Source of the DNA: Candidatus Omnitrophica bacterium UBA6215
Lineage (GTDB): Bacteria > Omnitrophota > Gorgyraeia > Pluralincolimonadales > Pluralincolimonadaceae
DNA length: 64,000 bases
NCBI GenBank assembly: GCA_002421665.1
Contig: DISH01000005.1
Span: 14,092-78,091 of the forward strand
Direction of reading: 5' to 3'
The position numbers and the translations under genes are program-made. Below are positions 4,803 through 64,000 of the stretch, one piece after another. Below the pieces are notes generated by a model. The model did not search any database, was not told the origin of the DNA, and saw nothing but the letters and a program-made list of their open reading frames with translations. Numbering within the stretch: position 1 is the stretch's first letter; each line of letters opens with the position of its first letter.

Positions 4803-4805
4803 CAG

Positions 4806-7143: not shown

Positions 7144-7172
7144 TTGACACTTCTATCTTGTTAAGGTATATT
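7144..7172 (+). promoter_or_regulatory. sigma70-type promoter TTGACA-17-TATATT for the PEP-CTERM gene pair
   Basis: Near-consensus -35/-10. Followed by a ~130-nt leader containing two 18-nt direct repeats (7183-7200 and 7270-7287). Confidence 0.5.
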
Positions 7173-7307
7173 ATAGTGGTTCATAAACACGTGTCGAAAA
7201 CTGCATGGGCAACTTCTGAATTACAAGCTCATTTAACCGGTTAACGAAAAAGTTTATTGTTCTTGAATAATAAACACGTTTCGAAAAATGGGAGCCAAGA
7301 AAGAACC

Positions 7308-7943: not shown

Positions 7944-7954
7944 GAAAGAGAAAG

Positions 7955-35102: not shown

Positions 35103-35108
35103 ATGAGC

Positions 35109-37759: not shown

Positions 37760-37871
37760 ATTATCCATGTGTATTATACAAACAAACAAAACTATTGGCA
37801 ACAAAAAATCATTGAAACCCTTGTCATTTTCGAGTATTTTTGGTATAGTTATATCGCTTGGAGGAGGCCAA

Positions 37872-42482: not shown

Positions 42483-42500
42483 CAGGAAGGGGGGCGGAAG

Positions 42501-43085: not shown

Positions 43086-43120
43086 GGGACGCATTTGCTC
43101 CGCGAACAAGGAGAAATTGG

Positions 43121-43681: not shown

Positions 43682-43704
43682 GATACTAGGACCGGTCGGT
43701 CTCA

Positions 43705-46119: not shown

Positions 46120-46136
46120 AAAGACAAAAGGAAAAA

Positions 46137-48182: not shown

Positions 48183-49693
48183 AAGCGGTCCTTATCGCAG
48201 CGATCCCGGCCCTATTATCACAGGCCCGGGCCGATGAAGGGAGACTCGTTTACCTTAACCCTTTTACGGTAGCGGCTTCGTCTTTTGATGACAGTGAGTG
48301 GGCGCCGGAACCCGAGCCTTCGGCCGTATCCGACGGCGATTTCAACACTCGCTGGTCATCCGTCATGGGCAAGGATAACGAATGGATATACCTTGACTTC
48401 GGTAAGCAGAAGACCGTTACGGAAGTTATTATATACTGGGAACGTGCTTATGCTACGGAGTTCGAGATACAGTCATCCGATGACGCAATGAACTGGAAGA
48501 CCATCGCCCGGGTGAAAAACGGAAAGGGCGAGAAAGAGACGGTTTCAGTCCCCAAGACGACTGCGCAATACCTCAGGCTGGTCGGCTTAAAGAGGGTCAA
48601 CCCCGACTGGGGGTTCTCGGTCTGGGAGTTCGAGGCGTACGGTCCGCCAGAGCTCAATCCCCAGGACTTTCCGGTCGAGGAGGTGTTCCCCGGCAGGAGG
48701 CCGCGAGAAGAGGTCAAGCTTGTTATGGAGGAACCGGTGAGGTCACCCGGGGCCATCGGGCCCGGGGAGTTCCAAAAAGGCGTCAATTATTCGTCTTATA
48801 ATGAGGTGGACCTTGCCCTGCAGGAATCCGATGAAATACTGGCTTATCTCAAGACGATGAACGTGACGGATGTATGCATTATCGTGACGTGGTACCAGGA
48901 CAGCCTGGAGTCGATGTCCATGTCGCCTGATGCCGTCGGAGGAAGGACCCCGCGCGACGAAGCGCTCATCCATGCTATAAATAAGGCGCATTCCCTGGGT
49001 TTCAAAGTTATGTTAAAGCCTCATATAGACATACAATCCGGCGAGTTTCGCGGGGATATCCCCGGCGAGGAAGAATGGTTCGGGAATTACGGAGATTTCA
49101 TATTGAAATATGCAGGCATCGCGCAAAAATTCAATGTCGAACTCTTCTGTATCGGGACCGAGCTTTCCGGCACTCCTACAAAATGGGAACCAAACTGGAG
49201 GAAGATCATAAAGGATATACGCGCCGTATACTCCGGGCCGATAACCTACGCCGCGAACTGGGACGAATACAAATATGTCCCTTTCTGGAACGACCTGGAT
49301 TATATGGGCATAGACGCCTATTTCCCCCTTACCAACAAGAATGAGCCTTCGAAAGAAGAACTCCTTGTTGCCTGGAAACGGGAGGCAGATAATATAGAAA
49401 ATTTTTTGAAGAAGAAAGGCATAAACAAACCGGTCATCTTTACCGAAGCCGGTTATGCCAGTTCGGACGGCGCCAACAAGAGGCCGTGGGAAGTCACATC
49501 TAAGACCGAAGACCAGAGGGAGCAAGCGGACTGTCTGGATGCGCTTATGACGGTCATGACAAATCGGGTGTGGTTTTCGGGACTTTACGTGTGGAATGTA
49601 TTCCCCCAGGATATCTCCAGCCCGCTTGGTTTCCCGGTTAAGGGGAAATTGGCTGAAAAGATACTTGCCGACTGGTATGCGAAGCTGAAGTAA
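48158..49693 (+). CDS. secreted F5/8 type C (discoidin, CBM32-like) domain + GH-A clan TIM-barrel glycoside hydrolase
   Basis: Signal peptide. Discoidin signature FNTRWSS...EWIYLDFG...VWEFEAYG. C-terminal TIM barrel with FTEAGY (nucleophile-like TE) and WNDLDYMGIDAYFP. Paralog of 50372..51553. Confidence 0.65.
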   Translation: MAGKNRIIKAVLIAAIPALLSQARADEGRLVYLNPFTVAASSFDDSEWAPEPEPSAVSDGDFNTRWSSVMGKDNEWIYLDFGKQKTVTEVIIYWERAYATEFEIQSSDDAMNWKTIARVKNGKGEKETVSVPKTTAQYLRLVGLKRVNPDWGFSVWEFEAYGPPELNPQDFPVEEVFPGRRPREEVKLVMEEPVRSPGAIGPGEFQKGVNYSSYNEVDLALQESDEILAYLKTMNVTDVCIIVTWYQDSLESMSMSPDAVGGRTPRDEALIHAINKAHSLGFKVMLKPHIDIQSGEFRGDIPGEEEWFGNYGDFILKYAGIAQKFNVELFCIGTELSGTPTKWEPNWRKIIKDIRAVYSGPITYAANWDEYKYVPFWNDLDYMGIDAYFPLTNKNEPSKEELLVAWKREADNIENFLKKKGINKPVIFTEAGYASSDGANKRPWEVTSKTEDQREQADCLDALMTVMTNRVWFSGLYVWNVFPQDISSPLGFPVKGKLAEKILADWYAKLK

Positions 49694-49718
49694 AGGTACG
49701 GGAAAGGAGGCAGTAACG

Positions 49719-50303
49719 ATGGGCAGGTTAATGGCAGCAGCATTGCTGGTCGCGTCACTTCTTGCGTTGAGCAGTGTCCCTCACGCGGCTGAAACGGTGC
49801 TCTTCGGGTTCGAGGATGACACCGGGGGTTGGCGCGTCCCTGATTGGGCGCTTGAAAAAGAAGACCATGTAGCGAGGGACCTCTCCCTCTCTACCGATTG
49901 GGCTTCCGAAGGGAAGAAGTCCATGAAGGTCACTTCCGAGTTCCTCGGGGGCAAATGGTCGGGCGCGTATGTCGAGATAGAAGAATATTTCGACTGGTCG
50001 CCTTACAGCAAGCTTTTGGTCGATGTGTACATACCAAAAGATGCCCCGGCCGGGCTTAAAGGTAAGATAATCCTTACCGTAGGTGATGAGTGGAAATGGA
50101 CCGAGATGAGCAAGACCGTGCCGCTTACCCCGGGCCAAGTCACCACGATAACGGCCGATATAGCCCCGGGAAGCAAGGATTGGAAGAACACGATCGTCGA
50201 TGATAACTTCAGGAAAGATGTCCGGAAATTCGGTGTAAGGGCGGAAAACAACAGGACCGAGTGGAAGGGCGCCTATTATGTCGACAACATAAGGTTGGAA
50301 TAA
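49719..50303 (+). CDS. small secreted protein consisting of one uncharacterised CBM-like module (copy 3)
   Basis: Signal peptide. LFGFEDDTGGW, KSMK, KDWKN, YYVDNIRLE. Confidence 0.65.
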   Translation: MGRLMAAALLVASLLALSSVPHAAETVLFGFEDDTGGWRVPDWALEKEDHVARDLSLSTDWASEGKKSMKVTSEFLGGKWSGAYVEIEEYFDWSPYSKLLVDVYIPKDAPAGLKGKIILTVGDEWKWTEMSKTVPLTPGQVTTITADIAPGSKDWKNTIVDDNFRKDVRKFGVRAENNRTEWKGAYYVDNIRLE

Positions 50304-50313
50304 TGGCTGTTAC

Positions 50314-50351
50314 GCGGGGCCGCAAAAACCGGCCCCGCGCGACACCTTTTA
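50314..50351 (+). terminator. rho-independent terminator
   Basis: Perfect 9-bp GC stem GCGGGGCCG-CAAAAAC-CGGCCCCGC (50314-50338) followed by TTTTAT. Confidence 0.65.
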
Positions 50352-50371
50352 TAAGTCTTAAGGAGAGCAAG

Positions 50372-51553
50372 ATGTTTTTCAGGAGAAAGTTATTAATATT
50401 CATTCTGGTAGCAGCCGCGTTCCTGGCCGGCTACCTGGCCAGCGTAATGGCCCCGCGCGTGTCCTCGCAGAAGCCGGTCGAGACCAAGTTTGCTTTTGGC
50501 GCGGGAAAGAAGGTGTCCGGAGCTCCTCAGGAAGCAGCCGGTCCCTCAAGGGAGCAGGCCCCTGCGGCCGCGGCCCAGAAAAAAGTAGACAGGCCCCCTT
50601 TCCCTCAATTCCAGAAAGGGATGACCTATGTGACATGGGACAGGTCCGCGTACGGCAAAGGTTTTTCAGACATGTCCCTGGAAAAACTCGCCTCGATAGG
50701 CTGTGGTTATGTTGCCATAATAACCACCTGGTACCAGGGTGATTATAATATTACCCAGATAAAGCGGGGAGGCAGCACGCCTACCGATGAAAGCCTGATA
50801 CATGCAATAGAGTCGGCGCATAAAGCGGGCTTAAAGGTCATGCTTAAGCCGCACCTTGACCTTGTAAAAGGCGGCTGTTGGAGGGGGGAGATACAATTTG
50901 GCAACGATACCGATTGGGAAACATGGTTTGCCAGCTACGGGGATTTCATAACTCACTACGCTAAACTTGCGGAAGATAACGGTGTAGAGATATTCTGTAT
51001 CGGAGTGGAGCTTACGGTGCCCGCGGTAGAGAAGCCGGATATGTGGGTAACGAAAGTCATAGAGCCCGTGAGGAAAGTTTTTTCAGGCCCGATAACTTAT
51101 GCAGCGAACTGGAACGAGGAATACCAGAACGTTGAATTCTGGGATAAGCTCGATTATGCAGGTTTGGACGCCTATTTTCCTCTTTCTGATAAAGAAGACC
51201 CGTCGCTCGATGACTTGAGGCAGGGATGGAAACCCCATATGGAAGCTATCGAAACCTGGCAGAAGTTCATAAATAAGCCGGTCCTGCTTACCGAGGTAGG
51301 TTATAAGAGTTCAACGGGCACGGCCAGGACCCCGTGGGAGCACCAGCTCGGCAGGGAAGTGGATCTGAAACTGCAAAGCGATTGCTACACGGCTATGTTG
51401 GAAGCTTTTTGGGATAAACCCTGGTTTTATGGGATGTACTGGTGGTATTGGGGGACGAATGATAGAATGGGAGGCAGCACCGACCGCGGGTTCAATGTGC
51501 AGAACAAACCTGCGCAGGCCGTGGTCAGGGATTGGTACGCCAAAGGGCGCTAA
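50372..51553 (+). CDS. membrane-anchored/secreted GH-A clan TIM-barrel glycoside hydrolase (paralog of the 48158 catalytic domain)
   Basis: AGGAGA RBS before ATG 50372. N-terminal signal anchor. LLTEVGY, WDKLDYAGLDAYFP and YAANWNEEY motifs shared with the 48158 protein. The track ORF start 50261 is rejected. Confidence 0.65.
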   Translation: MFFRRKLLIFILVAAAFLAGYLASVMAPRVSSQKPVETKFAFGAGKKVSGAPQEAAGPSREQAPAAAAQKKVDRPPFPQFQKGMTYVTWDRSAYGKGFSDMSLEKLASIGCGYVAIITTWYQGDYNITQIKRGGSTPTDESLIHAIESAHKAGLKVMLKPHLDLVKGGCWRGEIQFGNDTDWETWFASYGDFITHYAKLAEDNGVEIFCIGVELTVPAVEKPDMWVTKVIEPVRKVFSGPITYAANWNEEYQNVEFWDKLDYAGLDAYFPLSDKEDPSLDDLRQGWKPHMEAIETWQKFINKPVLLTEVGYKSSTGTARTPWEHQLGREVDLKLQSDCYTAMLEAFWDKPWFYGMYWWYWGTNDRMGGSTDRGFNVQNKPAQAVVRDWYAKGR

Positions 51554-51568
51554 AAACAGGAGGATAAT

Positions 51569-52498
51569 ATGAGGTTTGTCTGCAAGAAATACGAAAAGAA
51601 CCCGATAATAACAAAAGAAGATATGCCTTACCCGTGCGAATGCGTATATAACGCGGGTGCGGCAAAGTACAAGAATAAATATATACTCTTGCTCAGGGTT
51701 CTTCTGCTTAACGGTAACTGCGTATTCGGGCTCGCCGAGAGCGATGACGGTTTCGATTTCAGGATCCACCCGAAACCGGTTATGGTCCCGGCGACTACAG
51801 GGCCTTTCGCCAGGTATGAGGAGAAGGGCATCGAAGACCCGCGTATCACCAAGATCGGGGACACCTATTATATCTTCTACAGCTGCTATTCAGGGCTCGG
51901 GATGAGGATAGGGCTCGCCAAGACCAAGGACTTCAGGAAATTCGACCGTATCGCCATGACGACCACCATAGATTATCGCAATTCGGTCCTGTTCCCGGAG
52001 AAGATCAACGGCAAATATTGCCGTTTCGAGCGCCCGAACGTGGGACGCCAGGGGATATGGGTCTCTTACTCTCCGGACCTGATACATTGGGGCGAGCAGG
52101 AGCATATAATGGCCCCTTACGGCAACCATATTTGGGAAGACCATAAGATCGGCGCCGGCGCTCCGCCTATCAAGACCAAGAAGGGCTGGCTGAGTATCTA
52201 CCACGGCGTTACCTGGACGATGGACGGAATGACTTACAGGCTTGGAGCAGCTATGCATGACCTGAAGAACCCGGCAAAGATCCTCGGGATAGCCGACCAA
52301 TTCATACTCAGCCCCGATGAGATCTTTGAAAGGGTGGGGTATGTCCATAACGTCGTTTTTACCTGCGGCGCAATACCCGAACCTGACGGGACGGTCAAGA
52401 TATATTACGGCGGTGCCGATACGGTAATGTGCGTTGCCGTTGCAAAAATAGAAGACCTTATAGATATAGCGCTTAAAGGCAAGAGGAAACCGCTATAA
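51569..52498 (+). CDS. GH130-family glycoside phosphorylase (beta-1,4-mannoside phosphorylase-like)
   Basis: 309 aa, no signal peptide. NPIITKEDMP...VYNAGAAKYKNKYILLLRV N-terminus and VVFTCGAIPEPDGTVKIYYGGADTVMCVAVAKIEDL C-terminus are characteristic of the five-bladed beta-propeller GH130 family. Confidence 0.75.
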   Translation: MRFVCKKYEKNPIITKEDMPYPCECVYNAGAAKYKNKYILLLRVLLLNGNCVFGLAESDDGFDFRIHPKPVMVPATTGPFARYEEKGIEDPRITKIGDTYYIFYSCYSGLGMRIGLAKTKDFRKFDRIAMTTTIDYRNSVLFPEKINGKYCRFERPNVGRQGIWVSYSPDLIHWGEQEHIMAPYGNHIWEDHKIGAGAPPIKTKKGWLSIYHGVTWTMDGMTYRLGAAMHDLKNPAKILGIADQFILSPDEIFERVGYVHNVVFTCGAIPEPDGTVKIYYGGADTVMCVAVAKIEDLIDIALKGKRKPL

Positions 52499-53397
52499 AA
52501 TATTATCTCGGGATTGACATAGGTGGCACGAACATCCGCCTGGGTGTCGTAGACGGCCGCGGCAAGGTACTGGCAAGATATCGGATGCCTACCTTGAGAA
52601 GGCAGGGAAGGGACAGGGTCATATCGAGACTGTTCGACGCCATAAAGGATATCGCGGCGTCGTATGACATAAAAGCGATAGGGATAGGTTGCCCCGGACC
52701 GCTTGACAGTAAAAAGGGGATAGTGCTCTCTCCTCCTAATCTGCCCGGCTGGCGCAACGTGCGGATAAAAGAGATGGTCGGCAAGAGGTTCCGCGTCCCG
52801 GCGGCGGTCGAGAACGATGCCAATTGCGCGGGGTTGGGGGAATCCGTTGCCGGCGCAGGGAAGCGCGCCTCGAGCATGGTCTTGCTTACTCTCGGCACTG
52901 GTATAGGCAGCGCAATAGTCCTGGAAGGGAGATTATGGACGGGTAAGGGAGGCTTTGCTTCCGAGTTGGGCCACGTATCGGTGGATATTAACGGTCCGAG
53001 ATGCGAATGCGGCAACAGGGGCTGCATAGAATTATATGCTTCGGCAACAGGAGTCGTCCGCCGCATGAAAAAGGCATCCTGGAGCAAGGCTGCCTTGACG
53101 GCTGAGGATGTATTTCGCAATGCCGGCAGAGGAGACAAGAAAGCGCGCAAGATAGTCGATGAGACGGCCTATTACCTTGGGTGCGCGCTTGCCAATATAG
53201 TTAACGCGCTGGACCCCGAGCTTATAGTGCTTGCCGGAGGAATGACAAGGGCCGGGCGCGGATTTGTGCGCAAAGCCGAACAAATAATGAGGAAGAGGGC
53301 TTTGAGGGAATCATCACGAGCAGTCAAAGTAACTGTCTCTAAACTTGGAGATGATGCCGGTTTGATCGGCGCCGCTTGGAGGGCGAAGGAGCTATGA
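52495..53397 (+). CDS. ROK-family sugar kinase with non-canonical start codon (or 5' disruption)
   Basis: The conserved ROK N-terminus YYLGIDIGGTNIRLGVVDGRGKVL (52501-52572) lies upstream of the first in-frame ATG (52585). The frame opens at 52477 with no ATG/GTG/TTG. In-frame ATA at 52495 sits 7 nt after an AGAGGA SD. ROK motifs ENDANCAGLGE and CECGNRGC (Zn) are present. The 5' boundary is uncertain. Confidence 0.6.
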   Translation: MKYYLGIDIGGTNIRLGVVDGRGKVLARYRMPTLRRQGRDRVISRLFDAIKDIAASYDIKAIGIGCPGPLDSKKGIVLSPPNLPGWRNVRIKEMVGKRFRVPAAVENDANCAGLGESVAGAGKRASSMVLLTLGTGIGSAIVLEGRLWTGKGGFASELGHVSVDINGPRCECGNRGCIELYASATGVVRRMKKASWSKAALTAEDVFRNAGRGDKKARKIVDETAYYLGCALANIVNALDPELIVLAGGMTRAGRGFVRKAEQIMRKRALRESSRAVKVTVSKLGDDAGLIGAAWRAKEL

Positions 53398-56267
53398 AAA
53401 GAATACTGTTAACCGTGTTCACTGGTGTTGTAGCATCGGTATTTTTGCAGGTCTTTGCGTTCTCTGCCGCGACGGAAGCGGTCCCGGCGGCAGGAGGGAC
53501 CGAAACCATCGTCTGGGACAGTCTTGAGTCGAAACACCTCTGGAGCATAGCCCAGTGGGGCGACGCCGCGAAACTGGCCGTAGCCCCTGACAATAAGACC
53601 GAGGGCGAAAAATGTTTCAAGGTGTCGTTCGGGCCGGAAGGCAAGCAGAACCCGCCGAAGGGCGTAGTCCTTGAGCGCGAGCAGTCGGCAATAGACCTCG
53701 ATACGTCCAAAAAACTTACCGTCGATGTATATAATGACGGCCCGCCTCTCGAGATGGCGCTTGTACTGTATACCGATGAATTCATAGAAAGCTCCACGGC
53801 GACCATAAAGAAAGGGTTGAACAAGGACATAACCTTCGACCTCCATGCCAAGGACTTCAAGAGTCCCACGAGTAAATGGCAGTATAATTATTCTCCTCGT
53901 CCCGGAACGATCGCGTGGCGCATAATGTTCATAATGTATACGGAAGACCCGGACATCAAAAGCACGGTATGTTTCGATAATATACGCCTTGAAAGGACGC
54001 CGAGGATAACCAGCGAACAGAAGATAATTGCCTTGGCCGATTACAAAGAGCCAAGGATAACCGCGGTAAAGACCGGCAATGAGAAAGTCGAGCAGTACGA
54101 GAAACTGGAGATCACCGTGGATTTCGAGGGAACCTACCAGTACCCCTATAATCCCGATAATATAGACCTGACGGCTTACTTTACGGCCCCTGACGGGAAA
54201 AAATATATCATGCCGGGCTTCCTTTATTCGGGGAAGGTGGACGGGGTCAACATCTCCGACGCGGTTTGGAAGGTGAGGTTCACGCCGGTGATAGCCGGGG
54301 AATGGGAATACTACGTAGAGGTCAGGAACCCGAAAGGCAAGGCGAAGTCGGAGAAATTTTCATTCGAATGCTTTGCCCCCGCATCGCCCAAGAAGGGTTT
54401 CGCGCGTATAAGCAGGAGAGACCCCTTATTTTTTGAGTTCGAGAACGGGGAGTATTATTATCCGATAGGCCAGAACGTGGCGTGGGCGCCGTCGGTGCAG
54501 ATGTTCGACCATTATTTCTCAAAGATGCACGAGAATATGTATAACTGGACGCGCGTCTGGATGTCAAGCTGGCAATGCGCGATAGAATGGCTGGATGTCG
54601 GGGATTACCACGGGCTTAACAACTATAACCTGAAGAACGCGAAATTGCTCGATGATATAACCGACCTGGCGAAGAAATACGACCTGTATTTCCAGCTTGT
54701 CCTTAACCAGCACGGGCAGTTGAGCACTAAGGTCGATCCCGAATGGCTCAATAACCCGTATAACAAGAAAAACGGCGGTCCATGCGAGAAGCCGGCTGAT
54801 TTCCTTACTGATCCCGAGGCGAAGAGGTTGTATAAGATGCGCATGCGTTATATAGTGGCCCGTTGGGGGTATTCTACCAACATACTCGCTTGGGAGCCGT
54901 GGAACGAGCTGACCCTCATGGACAACTATGACTCGAACCTGGATATCCCCTGGCAGAAAGAGATGGGCTGTTACCTGAATTCCATCGATCCTTACAGGCA
55001 CATGATAACGACCAGCTATTTCGGGAACTTCCCTAAGGAGATATGGAAACTGCCGGAGATAAGCTATGGGCAGATCCATATGTATACCCCGGAGATAGTT
55101 ACCACCCTGGACGGTCTTTACATGATAATGAAGGATTACAAGAAGGCCTATTTCGTCGGGGAATACGGCGGAAGCAACCTCAGCGGAATAGACATCCAGG
55201 ATCCCGATGCGACCGTCCACCACAACGGCATATGGGCTGCCTACATGACCGTGTCCTCCGGCGATGCCATGCCCTGGCAATGGGACGATTATATCGACCC
55301 GAGGAACCTGTATTTCCACTGGCGCGCACTTTCCAAGTTCAACGAGGGCGAGGACAGGCGCGGACAGAAATACCAGTACAGCCGCGGCACCATGGAGTTC
55401 GATGACGGGACCATATTGATGGCACAGGGCATAATGAACAACAATAAGGCCCTGGTATGGGTCTATGACCTTTATGCTACCAAGTTCAATCAGGGGGAGT
55501 TCAAGCCGCTTGACGTCAAGGGCGCCGTCCTGACCGTGGCGGGAATGGACAAAGGCGACTACAAGATAGAGTTCTGGGATACCTACAAGGGTATCGTGAC
55601 AGGCACGGCCGATACAAAATGCGACGGCAGGAAACTCGATATCCCGCTGCCTGAGATAAAGAAGGATATTGCGGTCAAGATCACGGCCTGCAATGAAAAT
55701 GCGCGCCCAAGGTCGGGCAAGATATACATTGAATCGAAATATGCAGAGAAAGACGTCCCTGAAGAACCGCGCAAACTTTGGGAAGGTTTTGAGGTACAGG
55801 GGGACTGGGATTACGCCGGCTGGGGCGATAAAGTGAAAGTATCTCTTGCCGGTAATAAGGTAACGGAAGGGAAAAAAGCGATCAAGGTTGTCTTCGACAA
55901 AGCGGGCAGGAGGACCGACGGGAAAGGTATCTGTGTCCAGAATACCAAGCTGAACCTTGACCTGTCGAAAGAGAAGAAGATGGTATTTGATGTCTATCTC
56001 GATGCGCCTAACTCCATAGAGGTATCGGTCGTACTTAACAGCAAAGGTTTCTGCGAAAGCGTGCGCAGGATCATAGTCCCCGGCTGGAACAGGAATATCA
56101 CTTTTGACCTTAAGGCAAGGACGTTCAAGAAAGAATCTACCAAGTGGCAACACAAAGGAGAGATAGACAGGGAAGAGCCGATGAAGGAAGTGATGTTCAT
56201 GTTCTACCCGTGGGATGTGGAATCGGGGAGCTTCTATATAGACAACGTAGGGTTCCTGAATAATTGA
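53394..56267 (+). CDS. secreted multidomain glycoside hydrolase: CBM-like module (copy 4) + DUF5060-like beta-sandwich + GH-A TIM barrel + CBM-like module (copy 5)
   Basis: ATG 53394 overlaps the ROK stop (ATGA) and follows a GAAGGAG SD. Signal peptide. N-module 53500-54000 (TIVWDSLESKHLW...GLNKDITFDL...CFDNIRLE). Central region is paralogous to 43705..46119 (WEPWNELT). C-module 55776-56264 (LWEGFEVQGDW...PGWNRNITFDL...YIDNVGFL). Confidence 0.7.
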   Translation: MKRILLTVFTGVVASVFLQVFAFSAATEAVPAAGGTETIVWDSLESKHLWSIAQWGDAAKLAVAPDNKTEGEKCFKVSFGPEGKQNPPKGVVLEREQSAIDLDTSKKLTVDVYNDGPPLEMALVLYTDEFIESSTATIKKGLNKDITFDLHAKDFKSPTSKWQYNYSPRPGTIAWRIMFIMYTEDPDIKSTVCFDNIRLERTPRITSEQKIIALADYKEPRITAVKTGNEKVEQYEKLEITVDFEGTYQYPYNPDNIDLTAYFTAPDGKKYIMPGFLYSGKVDGVNISDAVWKVRFTPVIAGEWEYYVEVRNPKGKAKSEKFSFECFAPASPKKGFARISRRDPLFFEFENGEYYYPIGQNVAWAPSVQMFDHYFSKMHENMYNWTRVWMSSWQCAIEWLDVGDYHGLNNYNLKNAKLLDDITDLAKKYDLYFQLVLNQHGQLSTKVDPEWLNNPYNKKNGGPCEKPADFLTDPEAKRLYKMRMRYIVARWGYSTNILAWEPWNELTLMDNYDSNLDIPWQKEMGCYLNSIDPYRHMITTSYFGNFPKEIWKLPEISYGQIHMYTPEIVTTLDGLYMIMKDYKKAYFVGEYGGSNLSGIDIQDPDATVHHNGIWAAYMTVSSGDAMPWQWDDYIDPRNLYFHWRALSKFNEGEDRRGQKYQYSRGTMEFDDGTILMAQGIMNNNKALVWVYDLYATKFNQGEFKPLDVKGAVLTVAGMDKGDYKIEFWDTYKGIVTGTADTKCDGRKLDIPLPEIKKDIAVKITACNENARPRSGKIYIESKYAEKDVPEEPRKLWEGFEVQGDWDYAGWGDKVKVSLAGNKVTEGKKAIKVVFDKAGRRTDGKGICVQNTKLNLDLSKEKKMVFDVYLDAPNSIEVSVVLNSKGFCESVRRIIVPGWNRNITFDLKARTFKKESTKWQHKGEIDREEPMKEVMFMFYPWDVESGSFYIDNVGFLNN

Positions 56268-56321: not shown

Positions 56322-56350
56322 TTGACAAAGGAATCTTAAAATGGTATTAT
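56322..56350 (+). promoter_or_regulatory. sigma70-type promoter TTGACA-17-TATTAT for the second PEP-CTERM gene pair
   Basis: Consensus hexamers in a 210-bp very AT-rich intergenic region. The ~130-nt leader carries two copies of the palindrome AGTATACT (56373-56380, 56440-56447). Confidence 0.5.
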
Positions 56351-56480
56351 TTCCCCGAAATAGTTATACCAGAGTATACTTGCCTTGTTATCTAATACTT
56401 AGTTAAACTTTATCCAAACATCTTTTGTTTTTATAACATAGTATACTCGGTTATACTAATCAGTGAAAGGGGGCGGTATA

Positions 56481-57110
56481 ATGGTAAAGAATTTTCTGGT
56501 AATAGCGGTTACAGTGATAGCGTCGCTGTCAATTTCCGTTGCGGCGCACGCTACTGTCCGGTTCGATTTTGCAGATTCAACCCAGGGTTGGGCTGCCGAG
56601 GATTGGGGTTACGGCCTTCCTGCTTTAGCGCAGGTAGGTTGGTCGAAGGACCCTGATACGGGGAGCCTCGAATCGAACAGTTCTTCCATGACATATACGC
56701 GCGCTGACAGCCAGAACTGGACAAAAGTGTACCTGAAAGGCGACTTCGCTTCCTCGCAAGACCTCACGTCGGAAGCTGTGTATACCATGGATCTCTATAT
56801 ACCCGATAACATTTATTTTGGTAAAGCGAAACTCGGGGTCAGGACGGGCAACTCATGGGACCTTTTTGAATCGGATGAGATCAGTTTGGAGCAGGGCTGG
56901 AACGGCCTGTCTTGGAACATGGGCGGTGTTTCGAATATTGCGGACGCCAGGCAGCTGGGGGTCGAGATATCGGGATGGTTCCCGGTCAGCGACGACGCGA
57001 AGTGGAATATCGATAACGTTGCCACTAATTCCGTGCCCGAGCCGGCAAGCATGTTTCTGCTGGGTGCGGGTCTCGCAGGTATCTTTACAATCAAAAAAGG
57101 AAGGAGGTGA
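56481..57110 (+). CDS. PEP-CTERM sorting-signal protein carrying the locus-specific CBM-like module (copy 6)
   Basis: Signal peptide MVKNFLVIAVTVIASLSISVAAHA. RFDFADSTQGW, EQGWNGLSWN, WNIDNV echo the module motifs. C-terminus SVPEPASMFLLGAGLAGIFTIKKGRR. Confidence 0.8.
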   Translation: MVKNFLVIAVTVIASLSISVAAHATVRFDFADSTQGWAAEDWGYGLPALAQVGWSKDPDTGSLESNSSSMTYTRADSQNWTKVYLKGDFASSQDLTSEAVYTMDLYIPDNIYFGKAKLGVRTGNSWDLFESDEISLEQGWNGLSWNMGGVSNIADARQLGVEISGWFPVSDDAKWNIDNVATNSVPEPASMFLLGAGLAGIFTIKKGRR

Positions 57111-57778
57111 AGACAATCATGACGAAGTATTTTATAGCTGTCACGGCTGTTTTGCTTATCGGACAGGCAGCATTCGGCGCGACTCTGTATGATTTTGAAA
57201 GCGGCACCCAGGGTTGGACATACCAGGATTATACGGACAGTCAGGCCATAACGGCTGCCGCGCAGTCCGGCACGCAGGCTAAGTCCGGTTCCTACTCGTT
57301 GATGGGGACCACCCACCTGGTGCCGGGTGACGTCAACTACAGCAAAGGCGAACTTCTTGTGACAAGGACGCAGGCCGACAAACTGGACCTGAACGGTCTT
57401 ACGACATCGGTATCCGTCTACGGGCCCACGGGAGCGGCAGGGACCAACCCCTCGTCTCCCAACGGCTGGCAGATGTTCTTTAAGGACGTCAACTACAAGG
57501 CATGGTACGGTCCGTGGACCAACATGGTCGAGAACAGCTGGACTACCCTCTCTTCAACAATAGGGACCACGACCCCGGCTTTTGTCGATTCGGGATTCGA
57601 CCCGACGCAGATCGTTACACTCGGTGTCAAGATCGGCACCGGCGGTTCTTCAACCGGTACCTATGACGGCGCTGTCTATGTCGATGATTACACGGTAGTC
57701 CCGGAACCGGCCAGCATGCTCCTTCTCGGCAGCGGTTTGATAGGCATACTTGGTTTTGCGAGAAAGAAGAGAGCGTAA
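57107..57778 (+). CDS. PEP-CTERM sorting-signal protein carrying a divergent copy of the CBM-like module (copy 7)
   Basis: Signal peptide. LYDFESGTQGW, PNGWQMFFKDV, VYVDDYTV. C-terminus VVPEPASMLLLGSGLIGILGFARKKRA. Overlaps the previous gene by 4 nt. Confidence 0.8.
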   Translation: MKTIMTKYFIAVTAVLLIGQAAFGATLYDFESGTQGWTYQDYTDSQAITAAAQSGTQAKSGSYSLMGTTHLVPGDVNYSKGELLVTRTQADKLDLNGLTTSVSVYGPTGAAGTNPSSPNGWQMFFKDVNYKAWYGPWTNMVENSWTTLSSTIGTTTPAFVDSGFDPTQIVTLGVKIGTGGSSTGTYDGAVYVDDYTVVPEPASMLLLGSGLIGILGFARKKRA

Positions 57779-57829
57779 AAGTAACGTTAACAAGGCAAGT
57801 AAAAAGATAATAAAGGGGGTATTAGAGCT

Positions 57830-60208
57830 ATGAGGAAAGTTGTAAAAGACTTGCTCCCTCACCCGAAAATAGCTTTAAGCACCCCCTTTTTTATCCGTTT
57901 CCGGCGCAGGGGTGGGGTGGCCCTCATACTGACCGTCGGGGTGCTGGCTTTGATAGCCCTGATAGGGACGTCTTTTGCCGTGAGCATGTTCGCGGATTAC
58001 AAAGCGGCAAAGAATTTCCATCACCTGGCCGATGCCCGCAATCTTGCCGAAGCTGGGGTAAACAGGGCGATAGCGGAGCTTCTATACGGGACCCAGGGGT
58101 TTGTATCGGATGCCGTAGATTCCTCTACAGAGACATGGGCAGGGACCGATCCGTTCTCCGCGAATATAGGCCCTGATAACAGCGGTTACGTGGTCAACAA
58201 GATATCTGACTGTGCCGGGCGGATCTACCTGAACGATACAAATCCCAACCTTAGGGTTATGCTTGGGAACCTGGCGTTCGCATGCGGGCTCGCTGTTTCA
58301 GACGGCCAGGCGATATTCGACAACCGTCCGGCAGCGGGATACTCCTCGCTCGAGGAGATAAAGATGGTCCCTGGTTTCGACGCGGCCAAGTATGCCGCGA
58401 TATCCGATTTCCTTACGACATATGCTTACATTGACGCGGACGTCTCATCAACGGCATATCCGTATTCCGCGGCACCCCGGGCGCCTGTTAATGTCAATAC
58501 GGCGTCAAGGGAAGTCCTCATCGCCGTTCTGTCGGGGATAAGCAATGGCGCAAATACAGTTTCGCAGGCAGAAGCGGCTTCTCTTGCCGGCCACCTTATC
58601 AACGGCCGGCCCTATTCAACTTATGACAACCTATGGGACAGGCTGCTGACGGCCGAAACGCTCGGATATATCTCAGACGGCGACGCAGCGGTGGTAATGG
58701 CTAATGCCAACCCGAACACCGATATGATGAGGTTCAACCCTAACTATTCGTGGAGGTATAAACACGTCTCAAAAGGAGATCCGTCCAATGCCTCGGGTTA
58801 TGACGGTAACGGTATGCCCTATGCGGTGGACAAGACATCGCTGACATCATATACGACGGAATTCTCGTTCAATTCAGGAGGTTATTACGAGATAATTTCG
58901 ACAGGCGTTGTCCGGAATACAGCGGGCGCGCAGCTGGCAACCAGGAGTATCCGCGCTTGCGTCAAGATTTTTGATATCTGGAGGCAGACTACCCAGGCGC
59001 AATTTGCCGCGGGTTTATCAAGCAATGTGTCATCGTACCCGGAGCCTACGGCAGTCACGGCAGCGTCTTATGACGGGCAAGTCATGCTGTCGTTCCTGCA
59101 TTCGTCCGAACCGGTAAGCGGCACTCCGCATTTCCTCCACAAGATGGCCTCGCTCGACGCTTTCAGCGCAGGAGGCAATCCTAACAGGTCCAGTTCTGCC
59201 TGGGTCCCCATGAATCCGAATGCAGCCAGTGTTATAGACGCTTCCGACCCAGGCAACCTTTATCCTGACGGGCTTTTCTTCCCGAGGGACGATACCGTTA
59301 CCAACTACTGGTTCTATCCGGAGAACAACATCGATTCAGCTGACGGGACGCTCGAAATATGGTTCAAGCCCAACTGGCAGTACCATTACGCAACGTTCAA
59401 CAATTCCTGGCATTCGGCCAAGGTCTTTGAGGCGCAGAACAGGGGGACGGGCGGGGGAGGCTTCAGCTGGTCGAATTCGTCCATGGACATATATATAGCA
59501 TCCGACGATGATACTATACGCTGGAGGATAAATAACAAGAACGGCACCCAGTATACCTGGCCGATGTCAATGCCCGTTACCTGGAAACCCGGGACATGGC
59601 ACCAGATAGCAGTAACGTGGGATTATGAAGATTATTCTGGAGACCCTGCGAGGGCCCAGGTATTCTATATCGACGGTATAGGCGCACCCGCGTGGAACAT
59701 AAAAGACGCCCCTAACCAGTTTCTCGGTGACAACGGGCTGGAATTCGGATGTGATACCCCTTACCAGGAACCGCCGAATGCCACTTACGGGGAGATCCGG
59801 ATATTCGCTTCAAGCACTGCCACGTCGCCGGGAATCGATTATGCCACAGGGGTCTATTATGATGTCGGTGACGCGAATTTTGTCTCTTCTTCGGAAACTA
59901 TAGGCGCGGCCAGGCTCGGCACGATATCATGGACGGAGCATATAGCCGATTCATCCGGCAACCCCGTAGTGCCCGGGGCCGACCTTACTTTCGATGTCTT
60001 TGACGGGACCAGCTGGCTCGGCAACAGCGCCGGAAGGTCAAACCCGTCCGGCAACCCACTCAACGTCATTACTGCGGGAGCGGGCGCCGTCCAATACAGG
60101 GTAAATTTCCTCGAGAACGGCAGCGGGCTTTTCGATACTCCGGTGCTGGACGACGTGACTATAACGTATACAAGAAAGGCGGAGATCCTTTACCGGAGGG
60201 ATATTTAA
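57830..60208 (+). CDS. GspK/PilX-like minor pseudopilin fused to a C-terminal LamG/ConA-like lectin domain
   Basis: N-terminal RRRGGVALILTVGVLALIALIGTSFA hydrophobic segment as in T2SS GspK. Two helix-hairpin-helix-like segments including PVNVNTASREVLIAVLSGI. C-terminal ~250 aa with LEIWFKPNW...WHQIAVTWDYEDY...AQVFYIDG resembling a laminin-G/concanavalin-A-like jelly roll. Confidence 0.55.
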   Translation: MRKVVKDLLPHPKIALSTPFFIRFRRRGGVALILTVGVLALIALIGTSFAVSMFADYKAAKNFHHLADARNLAEAGVNRAIAELLYGTQGFVSDAVDSSTETWAGTDPFSANIGPDNSGYVVNKISDCAGRIYLNDTNPNLRVMLGNLAFACGLAVSDGQAIFDNRPAAGYSSLEEIKMVPGFDAAKYAAISDFLTTYAYIDADVSSTAYPYSAAPRAPVNVNTASREVLIAVLSGISNGANTVSQAEAASLAGHLINGRPYSTYDNLWDRLLTAETLGYISDGDAAVVMANANPNTDMMRFNPNYSWRYKHVSKGDPSNASGYDGNGMPYAVDKTSLTSYTTEFSFNSGGYYEIISTGVVRNTAGAQLATRSIRACVKIFDIWRQTTQAQFAAGLSSNVSSYPEPTAVTAASYDGQVMLSFLHSSEPVSGTPHFLHKMASLDAFSAGGNPNRSSSAWVPMNPNAASVIDASDPGNLYPDGLFFPRDDTVTNYWFYPENNIDSADGTLEIWFKPNWQYHYATFNNSWHSAKVFEAQNRGTGGGGFSWSNSSMDIYIASDDDTIRWRINNKNGTQYTWPMSMPVTWKPGTWHQIAVTWDYEDYSGDPARAQVFYIDGIGAPAWNIKDAPNQFLGDNGLEFGCDTPYQEPPNATYGEIRIFASSTATSPGIDYATGVYYDVGDANFVSSSETIGAARLGTISWTEHIADSSGNPVVPGADLTFDVFDGTSWLGNSAGRSNPSGNPLNVITAGAGAVQYRVNFLENGSGLFDTPVLDDVTITYTRKAEILYRRDI

Positions 60209-61072
60209 ATGAAGATATGGGCGGCCCTGGCCGCCGTTATGCTGTTTATGTTCCCTGCACACGCGCAAGAGATGAAGGCGGAGGGCTACGGGAGGGCTGC
60301 AGCGTCCAAATATGAGCTCAGCGTCTCGGCAGAAGTAAGGAAACTTACCTCGGGGGACGCCGTTCTCGTAAAATACAAGACCAACCTGCCGCAGAAGACA
60401 GTGCTATACATGACCGTAAGGGCCCTCGGCCAGGTCCTTGTCACGCGCAAGCAGACGGTGGAAGGTCCGACCTTTGCTATAAGGTTCGGCCCGTTCGATG
60501 ACAAGAGTTTTGCGCCGGGTATATATGTTGTTGATGTCTCATGCCTGCCTTCCCGCCAGGAGAGCGCGTCGGTAAAGGAAGAGCTCGCAGGCATGGATGA
60601 TCTTGTCGCTTCCGCTGAGTTAAGGGTAGGGTCCCCGGAGGAATACGAAGTCACAACGCTCAGGCGCAAGGCCGAGCTCACCTCTGAGCTGGAAGACCTG
60701 GCGGCCTTGTATTCCGCGATAAACACCGAATACGTTTCCCAGAAGAAGGATTTTGACGGGGAGAGATGGGAAGCATTTTCCGCGTCGTGGAAGGAGAAGA
60801 TTGGCGCGATCCGGCAGAAAGACATCCAATACCGCGCCCGGATGCTCGTTATGGATTATGCGGCTCAGGAGAACATAAAGATGATGATGGTTGACACCCT
60901 TGATAAACTCTGGACCAGGTATATGGAAGACCTTTCACAGGAGAACGGCCTCGGTTTCAAGGCCCCGCCTTCACCGGACAACAGGCCTGCGGAGATGCTT
61001 AAAAGCGTTATGCAGGAATTGCTCGTCAACTCGGATAGTTTCGTCTTGACTTTTTCCAAGCAGAAAGATTAA
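60209..61072 (+). CDS. secreted hypothetical protein
   Basis: Signal peptide MKIWAALAAVMLFMFPAHAQ, 287 aa, no recognisable motif. Start codon abuts the previous stop. Confidence 0.45.
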   Translation: MKIWAALAAVMLFMFPAHAQEMKAEGYGRAAASKYELSVSAEVRKLTSGDAVLVKYKTNLPQKTVLYMTVRALGQVLVTRKQTVEGPTFAIRFGPFDDKSFAPGIYVVDVSCLPSRQESASVKEELAGMDDLVASAELRVGSPEEYEVTTLRRKAELTSELEDLAALYSAINTEYVSQKKDFDGERWEAFSASWKEKIGAIRQKDIQYRARMLVMDYAAQENIKMMMVDTLDKLWTRYMEDLSQENGLGFKAPPSPDNRPAEMLKSVMQELLVNSDSFVLTFSKQKD

Positions 61073-61081: not shown

Positions 61082-62329
61082 ATGCATGGCCGGGATATAC
61101 CAATAGCGATCGCAAAGGCACTGGTCTTTTCTTTGATGATTTTTACCGTGTTTTGCCTTGCGGGCTGCGGCAAGGTCCCGGAAGAGAAGAAGATATTGAT
61201 GTGGCTGGTAGGTTCGGAGAAACAGGCCCAGAAGATAACGGAACTGGGCCTCGATTTTTATAAGCAGACCGGCGTTAAGGTCAGCTGCGAGGCCATATCG
61301 TGGGGCGAAGCGCATTCTAAATACCTTACCTCTGTCGTCGGAGAAGTAACGCCCGATATAGGCACTATGGGGTTGACCTGGGGTACGGAATTCGGGAATC
61401 TCGGGGCCATGGTGGACCTGAACAGGGAATTCCCGGACGATCTCAGCGAACTGACATCCAGCATCTTCCCGGGACTGGCGGGTTCCATACGATATAACGA
61501 CAGTATATTCGCGGTCCCGTTTGACATGAGCGAATATATAATGTTTTACAGGTGCGATATCATAAAGGAGCCTCCTCGCACATGGAAAGACCTTACCTCT
61601 CTGCTTTCCGAGCTTAATTCTTCCGGCAGATCCATGATAATAGACTGGGGCGGCATGGGATGGATAGGCTATTCCCCGTTCCTGTGGCAGAACGGCGGGG
61701 ATTATTACGACAAGGACATGACCTCCGCTACCTTAGACAGCGATAAGGCCCTTGAAGCGATGAAGTTCTTTACCAGCCTCTATAAGGCATATGAAGTCCC
61801 CGTGGAGAACAGGCCGGTCGAGCAAAGTTTCAAGATCGGGGAGTACCCTATTTTCATATCGGGTAACTGGAAGATGAAGAGCCTTTCAGATATAGCGCCG
61901 GAGCTCAAAGGCAAGTGGGCCATAGCAACGCTTCCCGCAGGTCCGACGGGCAAGAAGACGGGTTTTATCGGAGGCAGGGTCATGGGTATATTTTCCCTTT
62001 CGAAGCATAAGAAAGAAGCATGGGAATTTATAAAATACCTGTCGAGGCCGGATATACAGATAAAGCTTTACGAGGACACGCTTGAATCGCACGACACCTA
62101 TCTTCCGCCGAACATAAAGACCTGGAACTTATTGCCGATGGAAGATTCTTTCAAACGGCCTCTCCTGGATCAGGCGATGGACTCAAAGGGTCCGCCTTCG
62201 GTACTGGGCTGGGATGACAGCACAAGGTTCATAGACACGGCCATACAGATGGTGGTGCTTAAGAATAAGGATGCCGGCGCCGCCTTGAAAGATGCGGATA
62301 ACGAGCTCGAGAGGAGGATCAGGCGATGA
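61082..62329 (+). CDS. sugar ABC transporter substrate-binding lipoprotein (solute-binding protein family 1)
   Basis: Lipobox FCLAGCGK. 415 aa with the overall composition of the MalE/UgpB-type SBP fold. Confidence 0.75.
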   Translation: MHGRDIPIAIAKALVFSLMIFTVFCLAGCGKVPEEKKILMWLVGSEKQAQKITELGLDFYKQTGVKVSCEAISWGEAHSKYLTSVVGEVTPDIGTMGLTWGTEFGNLGAMVDLNREFPDDLSELTSSIFPGLAGSIRYNDSIFAVPFDMSEYIMFYRCDIIKEPPRTWKDLTSLLSELNSSGRSMIIDWGGMGWIGYSPFLWQNGGDYYDKDMTSATLDSDKALEAMKFFTSLYKAYEVPVENRPVEQSFKIGEYPIFISGNWKMKSLSDIAPELKGKWAIATLPAGPTGKKTGFIGGRVMGIFSLSKHKKEAWEFIKYLSRPDIQIKLYEDTLESHDTYLPPNIKTWNLLPMEDSFKRPLLDQAMDSKGPPSVLGWDDSTRFIDTAIQMVVLKNKDAGAALKDADNELERRIRR

Positions 62330-63228
62330 ACTCCGTATTAAAAGAGCTCAATAAGCAGAAATCGGCTTATATCTTTATCGCTCCGTCCTTTATAATATTT
62401 ACGGTTTTTTTGATAATACCCGTCTTTGCATCGCTTTATTGGAGCCTTACCGAATACAATATACTGCAGCCCCCGAAGTTCGTGGGTTTCCAGAACTATA
62501 TAAACATACTATTTCACGATCCCCGTTTCTGGAAGGCGATGGCCAATACCGTGATATTCGTTGCGGGCACAGTTCCTACCAGTATCGCAATATCGCTTCT
62601 CCTGGCCATAGCTATAGACCAGAATATAAGGTTCAAGAACTGGTTCAAGACATTTTTTTTCATACCGAGCATAACTTCCATAATAGCCATATCGGTGATA
62701 TGGAAGTGGCTCTATGCCAGCGGCAAATACGGGCTGTTTAACCACCTGCTGACCTCAATAGGCCTGCCTTCGGTCAACTGGCTGGGCGTCACCTGGACCC
62801 TGCCGTCGATAATCCTCATGAGCGTATGGGGAGGGCTCGGTTATAACATGATATTATTCCTGGCCGGCCTGCAAGGCATACCACATGTATTCTATGAAGC
62901 GGCTGAGGTCGATGGGGCAAGCGAATGGGACAAGTTCAGGAACGTTACGCTGCCTTTGCTGAGGCCTACCATGCTTTTTGTCACTATAATGTCCGTAATA
63001 AGCGCTTTCCAGGTATTCGAGCAGGTATATATAATGACATATAATTCCGAAGGCGCCGTTGGCGGGACCCTTGATTGCGCCCTGACCATAGTCGCGTACC
63101 TTTACGAGACCGGTTTCCAGAGGTTCTCGATGGGTTATGCTTCGGCCCTCGCTTACCTGATATTTTTCATATTGTTCATAGTGACCATAGTTAACATGAA
63201 GATCGTAGAAAAGAAGGTAGAGTATTGA
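62326..63228 (+). CDS. carbohydrate ABC transporter permease (MalF/UgpA-like)
   Basis: Six TM helices. EAA loop EAAEVDGASEWDKFRNVTLPLLRP. Confidence 0.85.
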   Translation: MNSVLKELNKQKSAYIFIAPSFIIFTVFLIIPVFASLYWSLTEYNILQPPKFVGFQNYINILFHDPRFWKAMANTVIFVAGTVPTSIAISLLLAIAIDQNIRFKNWFKTFFFIPSITSIIAISVIWKWLYASGKYGLFNHLLTSIGLPSVNWLGVTWTLPSIILMSVWGGLGYNMILFLAGLQGIPHVFYEAAEVDGASEWDKFRNVTLPLLRPTMLFVTIMSVISAFQVFEQVYIMTYNSEGAVGGTLDCALTIVAYLYETGFQRFSMGYASALAYLIFFILFIVTIVNMKIVEKKVEY

Positions 63229-63229
63229 C

Positions 63230-64000
63230 ATGGATATCGCTGAGATAAAAAGATTGGAGGCGGAGGGGCCGGGAAGGCCTGCCAGCAAGAAGAGACAGCA
63301 GCAGGTCCTTAAGGCCTTCGTCTATATCTTCCTTATGGTAGGATCATTTGTTATGATAGTGCCTTTTGTATGGATGATAGTAACATCGTTCAAGCCGCTC
63401 GAAGAGATAAATACTTATCCTCCGAGTTTCTTCATCAGGAAACCGACCATAGCCGCTTACATAGAGTTGTTCAGCATCATACCCATGGGAAGATATTTCC
63501 TTAACAGCCTGATAGTCACCTGCTCTATAACGCTTGCGAATATATTCTTCTGTTCACTTGCCGGATACGCTTTTGCCAAGCACCGTTTCTTCGGCCGCGA
63601 CAAGCTTTTCCTGCTTTTAGTCGGGTCAATGATGATACCCTGGCAGGTCAACCTTATACCAAGTTTTGTCATAGTAAAAAAATTCGGGTGGCTCAACTCT
63701 TTCTACGGCCTGATAATACCTGCTATGTCGGGCGCATTCGGCATCTTCCTGATGAGGCAATTCATTATGAACATACCGGATGACCTTATAGACGCCGCGA
63801 AGATAGACGGTTGCAGCGAATTCACCATATACAGGAGGGTGATCCTGCCGCTCATCCAGCCGGCCCTCGCCTCACTGGCGATTTTTACCTTTATGGGGCA
63901 ATGGAACAATTTTGTCTGGCCCTTGGTTATCGTATATTCGTCCAAGATGAGGACCATACCCATTGCGTTGTCGGTGCTCAACGGCCAGTTCGGGACGAAT
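63230..64000 (+). CDS. carbohydrate ABC transporter permease (MalG/UgpE-like), 3'-truncated by window end
   Basis: Not in the ORF track because there is no stop before the window end. ATG 63230 opens a frame encoding MDIAEIKRLEAEGPGRP...DAAKIDGCSEFTIYRRVILPLIQP (EAA loop) through nt 64000. Confidence 0.8.
   Translation, partial: MDIAEIKRLEAEGPGRPASKKRQQQVLKAFVYIFLMVGSFVMIVPFVWMIVTSFKPLEEINTYPPSFFIRKPTIAAYIELFSIIPMGRYFLNSLIVTCSITLANIFFCSLAGYAFAKHRFFGRDKLFLLLVGSMMIPWQVNLIPSFVIVKKFGWLNSFYGLIIPAMSGAFGIFLMRQFIMNIPDDLIDAAKIDGCSEFTIYRRVILPLIQPALASLAIFTFMGQWNNFVWPLVIVYSSKMRTIPIALSVLNGQFGTN

Follow-up and report, generated by a model that had tools for sequence, protein, structure and literature searches.

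Priming and capping of all type 4 filaments is attributed to the H-I-J-K minor pilins, and it is an active question how such filaments gain specific functions. In the H-I-J-K complex that primes the filaments, K, a bulky subunit without Glu5, is added last as the cap (PMC9934059). In Streptococcus sanguinis, the modular minor pilin PilC is located at the pilus tip and binds glycans through a concanavalin A (ConA)-like lectin module (PMC9934059). The tip adhesin PilC/PilY1 binds PilK through a C-terminal plug (bioRxiv 10.64898/2026.09.18.752573). The verrucomicrobium V. alginivorum has a PulG-like pseudopilin in an alginate-induced cluster, with 67 paralogues (PMC13274419), and pili-like fibres of Planctomycetes bind dextran (PMC5394234). 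Here we describe a gene, the target, in a 64,000-nucleotide stretch (the window) of contig DISH01000005.1 from Candidatus Omnitrophica bacterium UBA6215. Its product joins an N-terminal part homologous to the minor pseudopilin GspK to a LamG/ConA-like module, and it is encoded in a glycan locus beside PEP-CTERM genes. A sequence-only reading had proposed this architecture, and profile-profile comparison (HHalign), the jelly-roll model and the gene context bear it out.

The closest functional precedent is PilC of S. sanguinis. Like the modular minor pilins PilC and PilB, the target carries a pilin moiety and a grafted ConA-like lectin module in one polypeptide (PMC9934059). The likeness is one of architecture. 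In PilC the pilin moiety is short and of a non-K type, the gene belongs to the pil locus of a monoderm, and the glycans bound are those of the host, whereas the target has a K subunit as the carrier, belongs to a diderm, is encoded in catabolic loci and comes with a conserved partner gene and a conserved C-terminal module (C-module). With PilC/PilY1 the target would share a large adhesive mass displayed on the K subunit at the pilus tip, and its family also has a strongly conserved extreme C-terminus. However, PilY1 is a separate non-pilin protein, while the adhesive mass of the target is fused to K itself. In the polysaccharide utilisation loci of Bacteroidota, surface glycan-binding lipoproteins of the SusD/SusE type work with a TonB-dependent transporter. 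The target would resemble them as a substrate-specific, fast-evolving binding protein for each glycan locus, encoded beside an importer and enzymes. This likeness is functional only, since the fold and the anchoring are unrelated (lipoprotein and TonB-dependent transporter versus pseudopilin and ATP-binding cassette (ABC) importer). Our literature search found no published combination of GspK and LamG, and the family goes unmentioned in recent genome surveys of Omnitrophota. GspK and modular minor pilins are already known; the unreported genomic logic is that of cap-subunit paralogues spread over glycan-utilisation loci.

The target gene is real and conserved. It occupies positions 57830..60208 on the plus strand (792 aa in the open reading frame (ORF) list of the window), exactly as the sequence-only reading had it, and its Shine-Dalgarno (SD) sequence AAAGGGGG lies at 57812-57819, 10 nt 5' of the ATG (57830). 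The motifs quoted in that reading were found as well: GVALILTVGVLALIALIGTSFA at aa 29-50 (nt 57914-57979), with the basic stretch RFRRRG directly before it, and PVNVNTASREVLIAVL at aa 219-234 (nt 58484-58531). A search of 5.8 billion proteins gave about 25 full-length homologues (~800 aa, 36-93% identity) and about 65 more distant ones. All named homologues come from Candidatus Omnitrophota or from metagenome-assembled genomes (MAGs) labelled Planctomycetota, and a protein identical to the target is also encoded on 84-kb metagenome contigs (L008/L009). When the family profile was run against 1.84 billion cluster representatives, 812 matched at E<=1e-30 and 3,119 at E<=1e-10. The best existing annotation of the homologues is 'LamG-like jellyroll fold domain-containing protein'. 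Databases label the family only as 'LamG-like jellyroll' or 'hypothetical', and its pseudopilin nature has therefore been overlooked.

The N-terminal part of the target was divided as follows:

57830..57916, plus strand: leader, aa 1-29, MRKVVKDLLPHPKIALSTPFFIRFRRRGG, ending at the invariant Gly29, a putative prepilin-peptidase site
57914..58630, plus strand: GspK-homologous region, aa 29-267 (HHalign, Pfam T2SSK, NCBIfam GspK)
58631..59014, plus strand: remaining pilin-like N-domain, aa 268-395, with loops and three sheet-closing beta-strands (aa 352-386) in the AlphaFold2 (AF2) model

The evidence for homology to GspK comes from profile comparison. We aligned 22 authentic GspKs, with E. coli K-12 gspK as the seed, and compared this alignment with the N-terminal region of the family by HHalign. 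Target aa 29-267 matched GspK residues 7-256 of 327 over 211 columns with a probability of 98.7% (E=3.9e-16), and the reversed-profile control gave 0.3%. The match persisted when the hydrophobic helix was removed (96.6%, E=6.7e-10) and when the comparison was restricted to the part past the long helix (96.3%, E=1.9e-9). At low stringency the alignment reached GspK residue 326. Taken by itself, the C-terminal beta-part of the pilin domain was not significant in HHalign (probability 4%). Pfam T2SSK (PF03934) matched the target with 27.1 bits (cutoff 24.2) and NCBIfam T2SS_GspK with E=1.5e-9. The GspK-like N-terminus of the sequence-only reading thus stood up to profile-profile comparison.

The details of the sequence fit a K subunit. 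Gly29 is invariant in alignments of 28 and 43 sequences. The N-terminus of the target, RFRRRG-G29 followed by VALILTVGVLALIALIG, has Leu at position +5, and this residue is hydrophobic and not Glu in 66/68 family members. The class-III-type N-terminus is therefore complete, with a basic leader, Gly at -1, about 20 hydrophobic residues and no Glu at +5. Region 29-267 contains the hydrophobic alpha-1 helix, the first beta-strands and a helical, helix-hairpin-helix (HhH)-like insert with the motif PVNVNTA (58484-58504). The AF2 model of aa 29-400 (pLDDT 87, pTM 0.84) shows the order helix, two strands, helical insert, strands. We rejected a Sec signal peptide (SFA|V), since in the model aa 29-86 are a single unbroken pilin-type helix, which aligns to GspK alpha-1. 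In all, the target resembles GspK of the type II secretion system (T2SS) and PilX of the type IVa pilus (T4aP) in Gly-1, in the hydrophobic alpha-1 helix lacking Glu+5, in colinear profile homology over about 240 residues including the HhH-like insert and (P)xNVNTA, and in the slot that its relatives occupy after gspJ. It differs in length (792 aa against ~320 in GspK, with the LamG module and the family-specific C-module added) and in the position of its gene, which lies away from pilin and assembly genes in a glycan operon and belongs to a family with several paralogues per genome.

Three results weigh against a simple assignment to GspK. The target scored 37.9 bits against the NCBIfam NF037980 GspK equivalog, whose cutoff is 130 bits. 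Pfam T2SSK_1st (PF21687), which authentic GspKs carry, was not reported for it. Foldseek of the N-terminal model against PDB gave nothing significant and did not retrieve GspK. Because of these results we regard the target as a divergent paralogue of GspK and not as canonical GspK. Among PDB sequences, phmmer found no match to the target, and in the N-region the family profile came no closer than E=0.19, to XcpX at the PVNVNTA motif. Verru_Chthon cassette protein A (TIGR02600, NCBIfam) matched only the N-terminal 76 residues of the target (E=1.4e-6). Together with the PulG-like pseudopilins it resembles the target as a pseudopilin expansion of the Planctomycetes-Verrucomicrobia-Chlamydiae (PVC) group, in some cases in glycan-induced clusters (PMC13274419). 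However, the score of 26.6 bits falls far below the 332-bit cutoff for a full-length match, and the V. alginivorum PulG-like gene encodes a small G-type pseudopilin, not a K-type one with a lectin module.

The C-terminal part contains two modules:

~59252..59815, plus strand: LamG/ConA-like jelly roll, aa ~475-662 (Pfam, Foldseek, family profile)
59816..60208, plus strand: beta-rich C-terminal module, aa 663-792, with a family-wide motif; the target ends with DTPVLDDVTITY..ILYRR and the stop codon

According to the model, aa ~475-662 form a LamG/ConA jelly roll. Pfam Laminin_G_3 matched aa 491-660 with 31.5 bits (cutoff 27.6). The full-length model had a pLDDT of 76 and a pTM of 0.76, and its top 50 Foldseek matches in PDB were all ConA/LamG-type domains (E 4e-7 to 5e-5, probability 1.00), including the botulinum neurotoxin (BoNT) Hc-N domain, thrombospondin-N, collagen IX NC4 and galectins (E 4e-7 to 1e-5). 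The family profile found carbohydrate-binding module (CBM) CBM40 (E=1e-4), an arabinanase CBM and the pappalysin LamG in PDB. The sequence-only reading had assigned the last ~250 residues to LamG. The jelly roll was confirmed, but its extent was not, since aa 663-792 are a separate module. Its motif, (D/E)TPVL(D/E)DVT(I/V)TY..ILYWR, occurs in 79/90 members, spread over every context class and phylum, aa 682-791 are predicted to contain strands, and no Pfam family covers aa 671-792. A PilY1-like 'plug' in which the conserved C-terminus folds onto the K body was kept outside our explanation, since the motif looks like the end of a larger beta-module.

By sequence comparison, the module between the conserved pilin-like body and the conserved C-module appears to vary: it is LamG in the target, and PA14 or another module in paralogues. 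LamG diverges fastest of all modules, as would be expected of a specificity determinant: at distances at which it is 19-30% identical, the body and the C-module keep 45-55%. The fold does not imply carbohydrate binding; the glycan-locus context and the hypervariability suggest it.

Directly after the target we found a gene that belongs with it:

60209..61072, plus strand: partner gene for a secreted 287-aa protein of unknown fold, whose start abuts the target stop (TAAATG)

The GGAGG SD of the partner gene sits within the last codons of the target. Partner homologues (for example L001 12431-13510; L004 6602-7663; L007 7702-8733, 8790-10001 and 13130-14197) adjoin 38/90 family members, also in the class B pilin operons described below. 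The partner family has a beta-rich region followed by a helical region with an invariant Trp, and some members have an extra N-terminal 'LKNGxxxEGEI' domain. Searches of Pfam, NCBIfam and PDB gave no relatives of the partner protein, and its homologues are named only 'hypothetical protein'. The sequence-only reading had placed the target between the CBM proteins and the sugar ABC transporter; these neighbours are as it said, but it overlooked the partner gene in front of the ABC genes.

Next to the domain architecture, the genomic distribution of the relatives carries our interpretation. We compared 77 loci from GTDB species representatives (222 relatives found) together with metagenome loci, using our own ORF calls and phmmer against labelled references. 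The context counts cover 90 members in 75 non-redundant loci. Pilin neighbours were found for 24 members and glycan-type neighbours for 26 (both for 1). The 41 members with neither come mostly from Planctomycetota MAGs, which the reference set could not annotate, and the context of P0046 (L006) was uninformative.

Distant relatives occupy the K slot after gspH-I-J. In class A, a family member lies directly 3' of GspH-I-J in complete machine operons, of which there are 10 or more (L035, L042, L043, L046, L047, L049-51, L055 and L078). The order in L055, for instance, is two T2SSE genes, a PilT-like ATPase, T2SSF, T2SSG, several pilins, T2SSJ, the family member and PilM. In class B (L007, L030, L031, L033, L034 and L044), GspH-I-J is followed by three large paralogues of ~960 aa (with PA14), ~1040 aa and ~1030 aa, which are interleaved with partner homologues, and EF-G always comes after them (L007 3171-17281). 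Class B operons suggest several alternative caps for one H-I-J set. In class C, which holds the closer paralogues, pilins are absent from the surrounding 10 kb, and the gene lies inside glycan loci of at least five kinds:

Mannan locus: the window, L001, L011-L020, L026
GH94/GH116 locus with three CBM-PEP-CTERM genes and an ABC importer (GH, glycoside hydrolase family): L002
LacI, GH94 and GH9/CBM30: L021-L025
CBM-PEP-CTERM, GH26/CBM9, LacI and GH94: L036-L040
GH94, partner, ABC importer and a GH113-like enzyme: L028
GH5, LacI and GH2: L004

The glycan association arose repeatedly. We rejected chance co-location with glycan genes, since at least five types of locus that are not homologous to one another show the association. 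A PEP-CTERM neighbour was found for 17/26 glycan-context members and a small CBM-like neighbour for 20/26. A LacI-type regulator lies at most four genes away in 11/26, and further downstream in most C1 loci. An ABC importer is often part of the locus too. Single genomes hold several copies. CAZYUB01 has five paralogue loci (L013, L021, L029, L033 and L037), and the MAG CAZAEH01, whose orthologue is 93% identical to the target, has a mannan locus (L011), a GH94-type locus (L025) and, on another contig, H-I-J with three paralogues (L031). Sister copies in other sugar loci suggest one pilus machine with different sugar-specific tips.

The paralogues of the GH94/GH9 loci (L021 9974-12439, aa ~216-240; P0022, P0024, P0025 and P0027-P0029) have a CxxCxGxG...CxxCxGxG insertion after PVNVNTA. 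It is zinc-ribbon-like, with a weak match to Pfam DnaJ_CXXCXGXG.

The start of the target gene lies within a further conserved element:

57806..57895, plus strand: conserved RNA hairpin that encloses the SD (57812-57819) and the AUG (57830) of the target

In 10 orthologous mannan loci, whose proteins are 45-93% identical, about 85 nt around the start are nearly invariant, synonymous sites included. The hairpin has a minimum free energy of -36.6 kcal/mol (z=-5.25), and 0/200 shuffles fold as well. It pairs both the SD and the AUG, and 97% of alignment cells are paired, compared with 42-61% after sliding of the partners. Compensatory double changes occur at five pairs, and none of 500 shuffles had as high a covariation score. 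The same DNA also encodes the conserved leader MRKVxKDLLPHPKIALSTPFF, and there was no Rfam match to the hairpin. A plausible role of the hairpin is to throttle or switch the translation of a cap subunit that is needed in few copies although its operon is highly expressed. Among the glycan-locus paralogues checked, only the mannan-locus orthologues have the start-site hairpin, and we therefore dropped the idea of a shared hairpin control in all of them.

In the window itself, the target is surrounded by the following genes and elements:

41379..56267, plus strand: beta-mannan-type enzyme set 5' of the target (Pfam; syntenic in L001 and L012-L019)
56322..56350, plus strand: sigma-70-like promoter candidate, TTGACA-17-TATTAT, 11/12, with TG extension (consensus scan only)
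56463..57110, plus strand: small CBM-like surface protein 1 (Pfam Mann_GBD_bact 30.3 bits, PEP-CTERM 29.3 bits)
57107..57778, plus strand: small CBM-like surface protein 2 (PEP-CTERM 29.9 bits; Mann_GBD_bact 22.2 bits, below cutoff)
61082..64000, plus strand: sugar ABC importer with a substrate-binding protein (SBP) at 61082-62329 (Pfam SBP_bac_1, 126 bits), a permease at 62326-63228 and a second permease that runs off the window end

By its gene content, this neighbourhood is a beta-mannan-type utilisation locus. The enzyme set encodes a GntR/LacI-type regulator, CBM-like proteins, GH5+CBM9, GH35, two GH113 enzymes, GH130, a ROK kinase and a DUF5060 protein. The promoter candidate lies upstream of the PEP-CTERM/GspK-like/ABC run, which is tightly packed with gaps of -4 to 51 nt. 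On the identical contigs L008/L009, a gene for a LacI regulator and one for a large GH2 come after the permeases. The 64-kb window has no pilus assembly genes, as the sequence-only reading had noted. No pilin genes lie within 10 kb of the target, which is not in the K slot after gspH-I-J. The further statement that the window has no other pseudopilin was wrong, since a prepilin-type gene is present at 29921-31135 (plus strand). It encodes a 404-aa protein with the N-terminus KKG|VTFVE (KKG followed by VTFVEILLALTVIAV), a weak PilA match, a long Gly/Ser/Pro-rich linker and a C-terminal domain of ~200 aa with the HExxH-like sequence VVTHEATHA. This domain has no Pfam match; it may be a pilin-borne metalloprotease-like module.

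Other genes of the window are also worth recording. Five small (~190-220 aa) paralogous Mann_GBD_bact-type CBM-like proteins are encoded at 42501-43085, 43121-43681, 49719-50303, 56463-57110 and 57107-57778, and only the last two carry PEP-CTERM anchors. The DUF5060 protein (963 aa, 53376-56267) has similar CBM-like modules at both ends, by eye. An exosortase cluster at 3503-8581 (plus strand) encodes a PilZ-domain protein, a 282-aa protein with no assigned family, a tetratricopeptide repeat (TPR) protein, the exosortase EpsH (5648-6481), DUF3485 (6463-7113) and a pair of PEP-CTERM proteins (7257-8581), and is likely the sorting system of the PEP-CTERM CBM proteins beside the target. The sole sizeable minus-strand block is a resistance-nodulation-division (RND) efflux operon at 31953-38011 with an AcrB-type pump, a membrane-fusion protein and a TolC-like OEP. 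Since the RND pump comes with a TolC-like OEP, the envelope should be that of a diderm.

The explanation we favour, to which we give about an even chance, is that the target is a divergent K-type minor pseudopilin which serves as a locus-specific, exchangeable pseudopilus cap with a hypervariable binding module. Once the mannan locus is switched on, the cell would produce the subunit along with its partner, but at a low level, limited by the hairpin over the subunit's ribosome-binding site. The hydrophobic helix would put it into the inner membrane and prepilin peptidase would cut after Gly29. The processed subunit would then join the H-I-J minor pseudopilins encoded elsewhere, and prime and cap the fibre of the genome's single machine of the type IV pilus (T4P)/T2SS type. 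The tip-exposed LamG would bind mannan or manno-oligosaccharides, and this binding would tether the substrate or the cell near the PEP-CTERM-anchored CBM proteins and glycosidases, while the adjacent ABC importer would take up the products. From the paralogues in other glycan loci, this one machine would receive tips for other substrates. In evolution, K may have gained a variable module in this lineage, and copies may have moved into catabolic operons.

The same modular cap could also sit on a short periplasmic T2SS pseudopilus, the piston, with LamG recognising not glycans but cargo proteins, namely the secreted glycosidases or CBM proteins of the locus. LamG domains commonly bind proteins, and GspK, the family of the target, works canonically in T2SS. 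A GspG-type major pseudopilin (T2SSG) is encoded in the machine operons, and a diderm with a TolC-like OEP must export large enzymes such as GH5+CBM9, GH113 and the DUF5060 protein. For the pseudopilin-containing alginate cluster of V. alginivorum, T2SS export of the alginases was proposed (PMC13274419). However, these operons also contain genes for a PilT-like ATPase and for PilM, typical components of retractile T4aP, and sister paralogues carry PA14, another carbohydrate-binding or adhesin module. A cap extension of ~400 aa seems bulky for passing under or through the secretin, and we saw no sign of a recognition feature common to the cargo. We therefore consider this role unlikely. Its corollary, that each glycan locus brings its own cargo-selecting tip for outer-membrane export, seems to us to have a similarly small chance.

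Alternatively, the target might act independently of any fibre. The pseudopilin body would then be only an inner-membrane anchor or stalk, and LamG and the partner would capture periplasmic oligosaccharides for the SBP/ABC importer or signal to the regulator. The lack of pilin genes nearby, the long and atypical leader, and the fact that the gene is a direct neighbour of SBP and permease genes in the mannan locus, in L002 and in L028 would fit this, and a dedicated secreted partner could stand in for the H-I-J contacts. Yet conservation of Gly-1 and the K-type helix is strict, and glycan-locus and K-slot copies also have the whole GspK-like body and the C-module in common, which is hard to explain for a mere anchor. 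Moreover, the glycan loci L004, L021 and L037 hold the gene with no adjacent ABC importer, and partner homologues are also found inside H-I-J operons. This makes a fibre-independent receptor improbable. A lectin-tipped pilus that binds the surface glycans of a host or prey, with the glycan locus degrading host envelope polysaccharide, would suit the proposed host dependence of Omnitrophota, where T4aP is implicated in attachment (PMC10066038), and the host adhesion of S. sanguinis by lectin-type tip pilins (PMC9934059), but is very improbable, since GH5, GH113, GH130, GH2, GH35, GH26, GH9 and GH94 are enzymes typically found where beta-mannan and beta-glucan from plants or algae are used, with salvage by phosphorolysis and uptake through ABC importers, and not where cell walls are lysed.

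If the target is an exchangeable cap, as we favour, the cap subunit itself would be a modular carrier of binding domains, which was multiplied within genomes and moved into catabolic operons under their regulators. A wider and more doubtful possibility is a 'programmable' pseudopilus in Omnitrophota and possibly in related PVC-type phyla, in which each glycan regulon supplies a K-type cap with a hypervariable lectin module and a dedicated partner, and the machine is re-tipped according to the polysaccharide that is sensed. If true, this would be a fibre-borne counterpart of the SusD/surface glycan-binding protein (SGBP) logic of Bacteroidota and a molecular candidate for the polysaccharide-binding fibres of Planctomycetes. 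The model of the exchangeable cap, if true, would explain how, in the absence of TonB/Sus systems, uncultured Omnitrophota get hold of glycans that are insoluble or polymeric. The family, with hundreds of members (the 812 clusters above), would then be a sequence handle on the polysaccharide-binding fibres that have long been observed in PVC-group bacteria, and would provide a natural set of swappable tip modules with which pilus specificity could be studied or engineered.

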